Source of the DNA: Candidatus Angelobacter sp.
Lineage (GTDB): Bacteria > Acidobacteriota > Terriglobia > Terriglobales > Acidobacteriaceae
Assembly (NCBI GenBank): GCA_035294925.1
Contig: DATGJZ010000142.1
Location: 65,357-129,356 of the forward strand
Reading direction: 5' to 3'
Length of the DNA: 64,000 nt
Below the pieces are notes generated by a model. It was not told the DNA's origin. It saw nothing but the letters and a program-made list of their open reading frames with translations, and ran no database searches. The first letter of the stretch is position 1. Each line of letters opens with the position of its first letter. This document shows positions 14,776-24,561 of this stretch, piece by piece. The position numbers were made by a program, and so were the translations under genes.

Positions 14776-16095
14776 ATGAGCACTGGAATCAGCCAAATTC
14801 ACGCGCGGGAGATCCTCGATTCCCGCGGCAATCCCACGGTTGAAGCAGAGGTCACGCTGTACGACGAAACGATGGGCCGCGCGGCGGTGCCGAGCGGCGC
14901 GTCCACGGGCGAGCACGAGGCGGTTGAGCTTCGCGACGGCGATCCGAACCGTTATTCTGGCAAAGGCGTGCTGCAGGCGGTGCAGAATGTGAACGAGATC
15001 ATTGCCCAGGCACTGGCCGGCAAAAATGCGGCGGCACAGCGCGAAATCGATGGCGTTATGCTGGAACTGGACCGCACTCCCAACAAATCCAAACTGGGGG
15101 CCAACGCGATTCTGGCAGTGTCCATGGCCTGCGCCCGCGCGGTGGCCAACTCGCTAGGGGTCCCTCTCTATCGCTATCTCGGAGGCGTGGGCGCCAACCT
15201 TTTGCCTACACCGATGATGAACATTGTGAACGGCGGCGCGCACGCTGACAGCAACGTGGACTTTCAGGAATTTATGGCCGTGCCGATAGGCGCGGAGTCC
15301 TTCTCTCAGGCCCTGCAATGGGGCGCGGAGGTTTTCCACGCGCTCAAGGCGGTGCTCAAGAAGCGGGGCTATAACACGGCGGTGGGCGATGAAGGAGGTT
15401 TTGCGCCGTCACTCAAGGCCAATGCGGAAGCGATCGAGGTGATTCTGGAGGCCATCCAAAAAGCCGGGTTGAGCGCCGGCACCCAGGTGGCAATTGCGCT
15501 GGATCCAGCCAGCAGTGAGTTCTTTGATAAGGACAAAGGCAAATATGTTTTCAAAAAATCGGATAAGTCAGTGAAGTCTTCGCAGGAGATGGTGCGTTTC
15601 TGGTCTGACTGGGTGCGCCAGTACCCGATTGTTTCCATTGAAGATGGCCTGGCGGAGGATGATTGGGAAGGCTGGAAGCTATTGACCCGCGAACTGGGAG
15701 GCAAGATCCAACTGGTGGGAGATGATATTTTTGTAACCAACACCGCGCGGCTGACGCAGGGAATTGAAGAGCACGCGGCCAATTCCATTCTGATCAAGGT
15801 CAACCAGATCGGCACGGTGAGCGAGACGCTGGATGCGATTGACCTGGCCCTTCGCAACAATTACACCTGCGTAATTTCCCACCGTTCCGGCGAGACTGAA
15901 GACACCTTCATCGCCGACCTGGCTGTGGGGACAGGCGTGGGGCAGATCAAGACAGGATCACTCTCACGCACCGACCGTATTGCCAAATACAATCAACTGC
16001 TAAGGATTGAAGAAGAATTGGGAGAAGCCGCCCGGTTTCTGGGTTTGGGTTCGCTGAACTATGGCGGGGACATTGGGAGTCAGGCGGCGAAGTAG
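14776..16095 (+). CDS. eno: Enolase (phosphopyruvate hydratase)
   Basis: Full-length 439 aa with [14 protein letters not shown] at the N-terminus and the signature [12 protein letters not shown] plus [17 protein letters not shown]. Confidence 0.97.
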
Positions 16096-16228
16096 GAACT
16101 TTCTTCTTTGCATCGAACGGAGTGAGAGATCCCTACTTTCATGAAAGCGAGTGCCGGGGTATCCCTCCCTCCGGTCGGGATAAACTACAAAAGCACCACT
16201 ATGCCAGGTTAGTTGGCCGTTGTGATGG

Positions 16229-16366
16229 TTACGAGTCGCCGAAGAGAGGGCTGGTAAAGTGGGTCACTACAGCATCGCCTTTTCCCAGAATCTTCTGCAG
16301 TTCCTCGGCGCTGAGATGGCGCGCATTTGCGCGGCTGAGTACGCGATTCCCGTTATTGTTTGGCAT
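16229..16366 (-). CDS. Candidate 45-aa small ORF (not in ORF track)
   Basis: The minus strand reads ATG...TAA encoding MPNNNGNRVLSRANARHLSAEELQKILGKGDAVVTHFTSPLFGDS. A strong RBS (gaaaggagaaacgt) precedes the ATG. It is convergent with eno. Confidence 0.3.
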   Translation of the reverse strand: MPNNNGNRVLSRANARHLSAEELQKILGKGDAVVTHFTSPLFGDS

Positions 16367-16442
16367 ACGTTTCTCCTTTCGAGAGTTGTTCCCCGCCAGG
16401 GATAGCGGGTTTTTATTCTAACAGCTCGCGGACCGCGCATAT

Positions 16443-23518: not shown

Positions 23519-23597
23519 GTGCTGTTCCTTATCAGATTTCCAATTTGTGCGTTGAGAAAAAGTATCACGGTTTGGCTTAGAAACTAAAGCCTAATTT

Positions 23598-24262
23598 GAA
23601 GCAGTGATTCAGCGGGTGGCATCTTCGGGATTCTGGCCGGTTCCTTCGCTGCGCTCAGGATCTCGCCCTTCGACAAGCTTATTAATAGGGCAGGCTCTGC
23701 GGGTTCCTGCTCCGCTCACACCCGCAAGACGGCTCGACTTCCGCCCACAGAGCGGCGTCAGAATGACAGGCGTTGAGTTTCTGGTTCATGCAGCCACCTG
23801 TGCAAAAGAAAGAAGGCCGCAGGGCCTGACGGTTCTGTGCGAATTCCCTGAAGCAACGATTCAGCGGGTAGCATCTTCGGGATTCTGGGCAGTTCCTTCG
23901 CTGCGCTCAGGATCTCGCCTGCGGGTTCCCGCTCCGCTCACACCCGCAAGACGGCTCGACTTCCGCCCAAAGAGCGGGCGTCAGAATGACAAGGCGTTGA
24001 GTGTTTGGTTCATACAACCACCTCCGCAAGAGGTTGGTTGCGCCTGACACACTTCACGGGTTCCCCAAAACACTTTTTTCCACGCGAGACTCGCCCTGCA
24101 AGCGAGTGCCAGAGTGTAGGGATCCCAGGAGAATTTGGTAATTGGGAAAGTTGGTAAGAAGATCCTTCGGCTTCGCTCAGGATTTCGCCTACGGGCTCGG
24201 ACGCCCGCAAAACGGCTCAAGTCGGTAATTGAAAGTCAAAGACGAAATTCTCTCGACGCCTA
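23598..24262. repeat. Cluster of intergenic repeats (two full family-A units, one shortened A unit, one family-B unit)
   Basis: The unit ...gattcagcgggtRgcatcttcgggattctgg...ttccttcgctgcgctcaggatctcgcc...gctccgctcacacccgcaagacggctcgacttccgccca.agagcgg.cgtcagaatgaca.ggcgttgagt...ggttcat occurs at about 23600-23800 and 23850-24030. A degenerate copy lies at 24160-24222, and a ggtaattg-type family-B unit at 24127-24262. Confidence 0.85.
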
Positions 24263-24561
24263 CGGGTTGCGTTCGTTGAATTATTGCGGGGACATTGCGA
24301 GTCGCTCCGCAAAGCCCGCATCGAGGGGCGTAACATCAAGAAAACAGACAACGACGGAATGATGGCGGGCAGTACAAGAGTGCAGTTGTTGCGACCCGAA
24401 TCAAGAACCTGGCTATTCAGGAACTGCTCTAAGGCTGACGTTGCCCATAAGTTCGCCACAAAGCGAAGGGCGAGAGAATCGCCGGCTGCGGCACCTAACG
24501 TCTGCAGGTCAAGATCTCTTAGAGTGATTTTGTTGATGACAAGCTTATTGGGTTTCTTCAC
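24217..24561 (-). CDS. GG-leader-type peptide paralog with extended or degenerate core (possibly a pseudogene)
   Basis: GTG start with a gaggagg RBS. The first 26 aa, MKKPNKLVINKITLRDLDLQTLGAAAGD, are near-identical to the 26007-26165 peptide leader, but the GG is lost. The ORF then reads 85 more codons through repeat DNA and the antisense of an eno-tail remnant. Confidence 0.35.
   Translation of the reverse strand: MKKPNKLVINKITLRDLDLQTLGAAAGDSLALRFVANLWATSALEQFLNSQVLDSGRNNCTLVLPAIIPSLSVFLMLRPSMRALRSDSQCPRNNSTNATRRRRENFVFDFQLPT
24266..24314 (+). pseudogene. eno: Diverged remnant of the last about 16 codons of eno (fragment F2)
   Basis: 49 nt align without gaps to eno 16044-16092, with 38/49 identical by hand count. 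It translates as LRSLNYCGDIASRSAK versus the eno C-terminus [16 protein letters not shown]. Confidence 0.6.

Follow-up and report, generated by a model that had tools for sequence, protein, structure and literature searches.

We analysed a stretch of 64,000 nucleotides (nt) from the genome of a Candidatus Angelobacter strain of the Acidobacteriota, hereafter the window. It corresponds to positions 65357-129356 of contig DATGJZ010000142.1 (C142; assembly GCA_035294925.1). The contig is 130 kb long and belongs to a repeat-rich 6.86-Mb draft in 147 contigs. Our subject is the enolase gene of this strain, eno, and the DNA immediately downstream. The gene is still intact and aligns end to end with the enolases of relatives. 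It is separated from a convergent BNR/sortilin-like gene (BNR) by a gap of 12.1 kb (16096-28234). The gap holds two further pieces of eno together with defence-type genes, gene fragments and repeats. The features are listed in Table 1.

Enolase pieces and inserted DNA downstream of eno

Two parts of eno recur in the gap. Both lie downstream of the gene and in the same orientation. The first, copy 2, is 94.0% identical to eno and lies on the same strand (repeat search and BLAST). It has sharp edges at both ends, and its translation matches Pfam Enolase_C with an E value of 4.6e-19. The second, copy 3, is also on the eno strand and is 78% identical over its length. By BLAST, 40 nt of it align at 85%, with an E value of 1e-4 against the whole genome. 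We also shuffled 17400-28234 on 30 occasions. The best 51-mer match to the eno end then had 28-30 identities, compared with the 40 observed. An initial annotation of the window had noted both repeats, placing them about 2 nt away from their true limits, and had taken both for older eno tails. Both repeats were recovered in the reported orientation. Copy 3, which holds the last 17 codons, is indeed a tail. Copy 2 is an internal piece (codons 368-412) that ends 86 nt before the stop codon, and thus is not. There are 8 differences between copy 2 and eno, 5 of them within three amino acid-changing codons, and conserved residues are affected (L>Q, L>F and Q>P). Copy 2 is decaying as a pseudogene.

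We compared the locus with related genomes, as the initial annotation had suggested. The gene order in the genus is PMT2, DUF3467 and eno, followed by BNR, Ysc84 and PALP. eno converges on BNR. In four same-genus genomes (G013, G005, G011 and G007), all of other species than the host, the site is uninterrupted or nearly empty, with stop codons ~130-390 nt apart. Some genomes of the genus carry one BNR paralogue between eno and BNR. In the closest clade beyond a sister strain described below (~87% amino acid identity), one MFS transporter gene occupies this place. Two genomes, G002 and G017, were considered as candidates for an integrase or island beside eno. They were rejected; the neighbours are housekeeping genes and the loci are therefore rearrangements, not islands. 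No eno piece was found downstream of eno in 13 related loci, and such pieces are limited to the two island-bearing genomes.

The DNA between eno and BNR is thus an insertion with respect to relatives, as the initial annotation had proposed. It is not the ~8 kb (16096-24265) first supposed, and the lineage-specific DNA ends at about 28207-28234. Intergenic comparison with relatives at 86-87% identity gave no usable similarity and no MFS remnant, and hence the junctions are not placeable to the base from those genomes. The G+C content is 0.47-0.53 for the cargo, 0.61-0.63 for eno and 0.57-0.59 for BNR.

Fragmented and repeat-rich as it is, a draft of 147 contigs might harbour an assembly chimera. 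Alternatively, the arrangement could be ancestral, or a second enolase paralog could be the source of the pieces. All of this is extremely improbable. The relatives have neither the span nor the eno pieces. The genome has a single enolase; tblastn detected eno and copy 2 alone, and blastn nothing besides eno and the known pieces. The second-paralog source, which the initial annotation had named as an alternative, is therefore refuted. In addition, the pieces share lineage-specific states with eno, and a scar of this kind is also present in the sister strain, which was assembled independently. At 94% and 78% identity, the copies are too diverged to be collapsed or duplicated assembly artefacts.

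Table 1. Features of the eno-BNR region, in window coordinates unless a contig is named.
Feature	Position	Strand	Remarks
Enolase gene (eno), intact, 439 amino acids	14776-16095	+	full-length Pfam Enolase_N and Enolase_C
eno stretch duplicated as copy 2	15876-16009	+	repeat search, BLAST
eno tail (last 17 codons) duplicated as copy 3	16042-16092	+	repeat search, alignment
eno-downstream stretch common to sister strain	16096-16451	+	93-95% identical
Unique core repeated at far end of sister cargo	16104-16139
REP-like (repetitive extragenic palindrome-like) dispersed repeat	16157-16195
45-codon open reading frame (ORF)	16229-16366	-	also called as a gene in sister strain (L040:2829-2966, -)
Terminator-like hairpin	16385-16409
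C-terminal ~150 codons of gene for a 378-residue hypothetical protein	16455-16917	+	93% identical to C99:64425-65097, internal gap
SSB-like pseudogene, 5' piece	16915-17145	+	cassette positions 220-446; frameshifted
eno copy 2 (eno codons 368-412)	17145-17278	+	126/134 identical; Enolase_C match
DUF3131 gene, C-terminal fragment	17284-17640	-	profile positions 257-365 of 367
Helical domain + DpnII/MboI-type restriction endonuclease (REase)-fold protein	18043-19344	+	PF18742 7.9e-53; PADLOC Aga_Helical-REase 4e-34
tRNA 3'-end-like piece (T arm and acceptor)	19455-19510	-	copy also in tRNA-Ser island, contig C67
tRNA-Pro(cgg) 3' part and ~20 nt of downstream flank	19605-19672	+	tRNA nt 31-77, 91%
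SemiSWEET (PQ-loop) gene	19722-20033	-	Pfam
Two-gene TIR operon: TIR-TM-like protein (344 residues) and bSEFIR/TIR + PD40 beta-propeller protein (797 residues)	20094-23518	-	Pfam; PADLOC TIR-TM 7e-47, bSEFIR 2e-55
Composite dispersed-repeat block	23597-24266	+	flush against copy 3
eno copy 3 (last 17 eno codons)	24264-24314	+	40/51 identical
SSB-like pseudogene, 3' piece	24344-24412	+	cassette ~500-571; solid block 24359-24412
Rest of lineage-specific DNA	24413-28207		duplicated leader-peptide block, repeats, MITE-like repeats
Glyoxalase_3-like gene	24829-25509	+
Small peptide gene	26007-26165	-
Gene for 337-residue hypothetical protein	26926-27939	-
BNR/sortilin-like gene (1112 residues, 28235-31573) and its downstream hairpin	28208-31573	-	usual convergent neighbour of eno in genus
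SSB cassette copies	C67:3240-3860; C67:9390-10010; C100:380-1010; C31:19290-19660; window 16915-17145 + 24344-24412

The same slot in a sister strain

The sister strain GCA_037024735.1 (loci L039/L040) has an eno gene 97% identical to that of the window at the amino acid level, and flanks that are 96-98% identical. Its eno-BNR slot holds 11 kb of genes unlike the window cargo. These encode a 634-residue SIS/HAD-like protein, PRTase-CE, an ORC-CDC6-like ATPase, a CARF6-like protein, a PfkB-like kinase and a Gp49/HTH pair. The first five form a defence-type block at L040:3821-11092. The island is present in three assemblies in total (also L041 and L042), always in the slot that carries the TIR/REase cargo in the window. 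The window and L040 slots have in common 16096-16451, a short piece at 16607-16691 and dispersed-repeat blocks alone. With 16096-16451 and repeats shared, and different genes inside, the slot is thus a conserved frame with variable cargo. Because 16096-16451 is also found in the sister strain, it is older than the present cargo.

The former end of eno is displaced in the sister strain. Here, L040:13432-13487 matches eno 16032-16087 at 91-94% and, in the eno frame, encodes 22 codons followed by a stop. This remnant is next to the BNR terminator, and live eno is 11 kb away. Disregarding a MITE-like insert (miniature inverted-repeat transposable element), it is ~30 nt from the sequence collinear with the BNR-proximal hairpin and BNR end of the window (28208 onward). 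Since the eno end occupies that position beside BNR in island-free genomes, L040:13432-13487 is the native eno end at its ancestral position, the live gene being completed by another copy.

A second repeat is found in the sister strain. The window sequence 16104-16139, which begins 9 nt and ends 44 nt past the eno stop codon, is found again at the distal limit of the sister's 8.4-kb main cargo (36 nt, 92%, E 3.5e-7). The same sequence is unique within the window's own genome. If the beginning of the REP-like repeat next to it is counted as well, the direct repeat of the sister strain is ~75 nt long with one 20-nt indel. Taken together, the remnant and the 36-nt repeat fit an integration into the eno 3' end in which a second copy would complete the gene.

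Other differences between the two loci were also recorded. The live enolases end in GDIGSHTE in the sister strain and GDIGSQAAK in the window; 33 nt spanning the eno stop codon of the window (16083-16116 versus L040:2700-2712) are missing from the live gene of the sister. Across the genus, the C-terminal tail of enolase varies freely in length and sequence. Upstream, the DUF3467-eno interval is ~170-180 nt longer in the sister (window 14657-14756 versus L040:1149-1321), with flanks otherwise 97-98% identical. The MITE-like element at the BNR terminator of the sister (L040:13559-13739) has inverted ends (ACCGTTCAGTTA...), and GTGTTTAAG is duplicated. Many members of its family occur in the window's genome, for example on contigs C32, C90, C51 and C93. 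A second small variable slot separates BNR from Ysc84. It is a gap of 234 nt in the window (31573-31807) and holds a PIN/MazE toxin-antitoxin pair in the sister (L040:17334-18099) that is not found in the window.

Age of the eno pieces and composition of the span

We aligned copies 2 and 3, the sister-strain remnant and both live ends with the ends of 13 related enolases. These five sequences have in common states that are absent in relatives (for example a TAT codon for Tyr, and TCG and AGT codons for Ser). All of them derive from the lineage's own eno. Copy 3 retains two states of outgroup enolases, at positions where the live ends and the remnant have changed, and for this reason looks older. 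One state of copy 2 (CTA CGG) matches the live eno of the sister strain, and the window's live eno has CTA AGG. Hence, copy 2 predates the change in the window. The two live genes have 3 differences within the copy 2 stretch. We estimate that the divergence of copy 2 would roughly correspond to neutral decay since about the time of the strain split. Alternatively, the two copies may differ in divergence because copy 2 underwent gene conversion by live eno, at a distance of 1.27 kb.

Divergence from the live gene amounts to 6.0% (8/134) for copy 2 and 21.6% (11/51) for copy 3 (Fisher p = 0.005, or 0.036 when one 3-nt cluster is counted once). This comparison bears on a possible, though doubtful, alternative involving one event rather than two. 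A single old duplicate of eno ~15876-16092 would have been split by the 7-kb cargo, and copy 2 would have been kept similar by gene conversion. The two copies are collinear and in the same orientation, together cover eno 15876-16092 minus 32 nt, and have matching halves of a single SSB-like gene on either side. Copy 2 retains identical runs of as much as 39 nt, which, at its short distance from eno, would suffice for conversion. The unequal divergence speaks against a single duplicate, as do the two outgroup states held by copy 3 and changed in the live tail and the remnant, and no direct trace of conversion was seen. Copies 2 and 3 may have arisen in one duplication event or in two. For the span as a whole, the divergence contrast and the mosaic structure make several events likely, in agreement with the initial annotation.

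The eno pieces adjoin remains of an SSB-like gene. The corresponding cassette of ~610 nt consists of a promoter region, a 126-residue SSB-family ORF (PF00436 1.5e-12) and a terminator hairpin. It exists in five copies of 85-91% identity, three intact and two broken. Intact ORFs are located at C67:3442-3819, C67:9643-9966 and C100:803-429; the C31 copy is frameshifted. The 5' piece in the window is 82-87% identical to the four other genomic copies. As a 230-nt repeat, it ends exactly at the start of copy 2, and an SSB block of ~55-70 nt follows copy 3. A leftward extension of the 3' piece across copy 3 was tried and rejected, the alignment being no better than for shuffled sequences. The two SSB-like genes on C67, spaced by 6 kb, belong to an island at tRNA-Ser that also carries an integrase, an NB-ARC-WD40 gene and an IS110 transposase. 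The broken window copy is therefore another relic of mobile DNA.

The two tRNA pieces of the window (19455-19672 region) lie mid-span and face each other. Thus, they are relics brought or left by other elements and not the ends of this island. The tRNA-Pro that matches the window piece adjoins an integrase gene on C35 (C35:10640-11389). A similar piece beside an integrase fragment (C79:401-1029) is also matched. The tRNA-Pro 3' pieces on the window, C35 and C79 look like attachment sites of another island family. Rfam and tRNA scans of the window had a tRNA-Ala (39312-39387) as their sole match, outside the span.

Judged by its sequence, the span is a decayed mosaic of gene fragments, tRNA 3' pieces, dispersed repeats and defence-type genes. 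A 195-codon ORF at 16882-17469 is chimeric: it runs from the frameshifted SSB-like piece through eno copy 2 into the antisense strand of the DUF3131 fragment. The 45-codon ORF, present in both strains, has a leader-peptide-like motif and lies in a repeat with diverged copies on C18 and in several genomes of the genus. DNA searches of 79 genus genomes found no copy of 17279-23596. For the bSEFIR-PD40 protein, 401 genomes of the order and a metagenome scan gave domain-level relatives alone, with at most 63% identity over the TIR/SEFIR part and ~30% over the propeller. Public assemblies contained no exact match to eno, the REase-fold protein or the TIR protein, and the collections searched contained no close relative of the cargo. 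The defence-type assignments come from family matches alone; in the window these are to Aga_Helical-REase, TIR-TM and bSEFIR, in the sister strain to PRTase_III-A and CARF6. No complete known defence system was recognised among the PADLOC and Pfam matches.

Origin of the island and its relation to known systems

The explanation that we favour, by a modest measure, is that the eno-BNR gap is a recombination hotspot that foreign DNA has entered repeatedly, beginning with a founding event into the eno 3' end. As part of this whole, and with the same slight preference, the pieces at 17145-17278 and 24264-24314 would be decaying, non-functional remnants of duplicated eno ends. In its favour are the nearly empty site in relatives, the different island of the sister strain with its displaced eno end and 36-nt repeat, the restriction of eno pieces to island-bearing genomes, the pseudogene-type changes of copy 2, the tRNA and SSB-like relics of integrative elements, and the lower G+C content of the cargo. 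The data establish the insertion, the variation of its cargo between strains, the direct repeats derived from eno and the native end displaced in the sister strain. The founding DNA would have joined eno within its final ~20-70 codons. The reading frame would then have been completed by a further eno end, and the former end would have been pushed to the far side, beside BNR. Either the incoming element may have brought this second end with it, through site-specific or Campbell-type integration, or the end may have arisen as a long duplication of the target. The last of these would leave the same picture as a recombinase or a Campbell-type crossover. Later on, further elements may have accreted in tandem, other defence-type genes may have taken the place of earlier cargo, and MITE and REP-like repeats may have invaded the site, along with deletions, pasting of gene fragments and loss of any recombinase gene. 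We infer that the agent was a recombinase, either encoded in cis and lost or acting in trans, or a homologous single crossover. The live eno end would be the incoming copy, and the events would have followed the order given here.

Several observations weigh against this explanation. Some concern the eno pieces themselves. As described above, copy 2 stops short of the eno terminus. The unequal divergence of the two copies (6% and 22%) misfits a simple insertion model. A distance of 3.9 kb separates copy 3 from BNR, and next to BNR itself the window has no remnant. With 22% divergence, copy 3 is also farther from the live tail than is the sister-strain remnant (6-9%). Microhomology at the junctions of the eno pieces is limited to 1-5 nt, as in illegitimate recombination. 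The initial annotation had held that the intact gene carries a replacement 3' end. The displaced end beside BNR in the sister strain upholds this in part, but every copy is of the resident lineage, which makes the foreign origin of the live end no more than putative.

Other such observations concern the surroundings of the pieces. The order is SSB 5' piece, copy 2, 7 kb, copy 3, 29 nt and SSB 3' piece. This looks like nesting, with an eno fragment placed within an SSB-like gene and the 7 kb placed within the eno fragment. Such a bracket is not predicted by a plain model of left and right attachment sites (attL/attR), and the favoured explanation accounts for it only incompletely. The apparatus for integration is also missing. 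Six-frame searches with hidden Markov models (PF00589 and PF00239) found no tyrosine or serine recombinase on contig C142. Pfam scans found no recombinase in ORFs of the span or of the sister island, and no transposase domain in those ORFs that were scanned. This agrees with the initial annotation, which had seen neither an integrase nor a transposase in the span. No recombinase gene lies beside eno in any Angelobacter genome examined. A transposon or composite insertion sequence is not indicated either, as no inverted repeats lie at the span boundaries and the ORFs scanned have no transposase domain. The assemblies searched contained no circular form of the island.

The main rival explanation is, in our view, rather unlikely. 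It holds that the live eno end is the original. The pieces would be short local copies that arose in an unstable intergenic region full of repeats, whether through break repair that is error-prone, through template switching, or through unequal or illegitimate recombination. In nature they would not differ from the other gene fragments of the span. Islands would have arrived and been exchanged by homologous recombination in the conserved flanks. The limited junction microhomology, the lack of a recombinase in the span or contig and the resident lineage of every eno piece all suit such local pasting. So do the fragments of at least four other genes in the span (SSB-like, DUF3131, the 378-residue protein gene and tRNAs) and the position of the eno pieces inside a split SSB-like pseudogene. 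A frame common to both strains, with 16096-16451 on the left and repeats on the right, around differing cargo is what flank-mediated exchange would be expected to give. The sister-strain remnant is harder to accommodate. It is a complete C-terminal frame with a stop codon beside the BNR terminator, and a random piece must land exactly there. Repeats derived from the eno locus also close the main cargo of the sister, and all eno copies share one orientation and lie downstream of the gene.

Integration into the hotspot, as favoured above, would have parallels elsewhere. In Streptococcus thermophilus, ICESt1, ICESt3 and related cis-mobilizable elements reportedly reside at the 3' end of fda, as Pavlovic and co-workers are said to have described in 2004. 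The eno locus resembles such arrays. In both, a housekeeping gene of glycolysis is targeted at its 3' end and stays intact, direct repeats are built from the gene end, and an older end is displaced to the far side. The present case would be a decayed array that has lost its integrase and gained more DNA at the same site. Unlike the fda-type arrays, neither strain has a visible cis integrase, and none was found with eno specificity. Direct repeats of the target 3' end flank the inserted DNA, but their extents are irregular (134 nt internal, 51-56 nt tail and 36 nt downstream) and do not form one core. The nesting of eno pieces in a broken SSB-like gene is a further difference.

More generally, genomic islands and arrays of integrative and conjugative, integrative and mobilizable, and cis-mobilizable elements integrate in the 3' end of housekeeping genes (review PMC5704250, section 2.3). 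The literature searched yielded nothing on eno as an integration target. Islands that target tRNA genes have a duplicate of the target's 3' part at their distal end, as seen here for eno. The host genome has intact examples with integrases on C35 and C67, and the span contains tRNA-Pro and tRNA-Ser-like pieces. In contrast to those islands, the duplicated target here is protein-coding and the tRNA pieces lie mid-span.

Defence-island hotspots carry strain-variable cargo in a fixed chromosomal slot between conserved core genes. The eno-BNR slot is similar, having unrelated defence-type cargo between flanks that are 96-98% identical. By family match, this cargo includes the REase-fold, TIR-TM and bSEFIR-PD40 proteins of the window, and the PRTase-CE, ORC-CDC6-like and CARF6-like proteins and toxin-antitoxin pair of the sister strain. 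The locus also has scars of target-gene duplication, which are not required in hotspots maintained by flank recombination only. The structure is thus of a known kind, a decayed and strain-variable island at the 3' end of a housekeeping gene, at a site unreported in the literature searched. A bolder idea, and quite an improbable one, is that the eno terminus and terminator serve as a dedicated attachment site in the Acidobacteriota. It would serve a family of defence islands that lack an integrase and, in the manner of cis-mobilizable elements, depend on mobilisation in trans. On entering, these would restore the end of the enolase gene, and they would exchange cargo within a conserved frame.

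No new mechanism is revealed by this locus. Its value lies in annotation, in that pseudogene pieces such as the ORF at 16882-17469 should not be called genes, and in the comparative mining of defence cargo. The locus also illustrates how a gene of glycolysis can outlast an integration into the end of its coding sequence, and how the site then decays into gene fragments and repeats. Further islands of this type can be sought with a clear marker, duplicated enolase ends between eno and BNR. The finding also places a slot for defence-type genes, variable between strains, in Candidatus Angelobacter, a poorly studied and mostly uncultured soil lineage of the Acidobacteriota.

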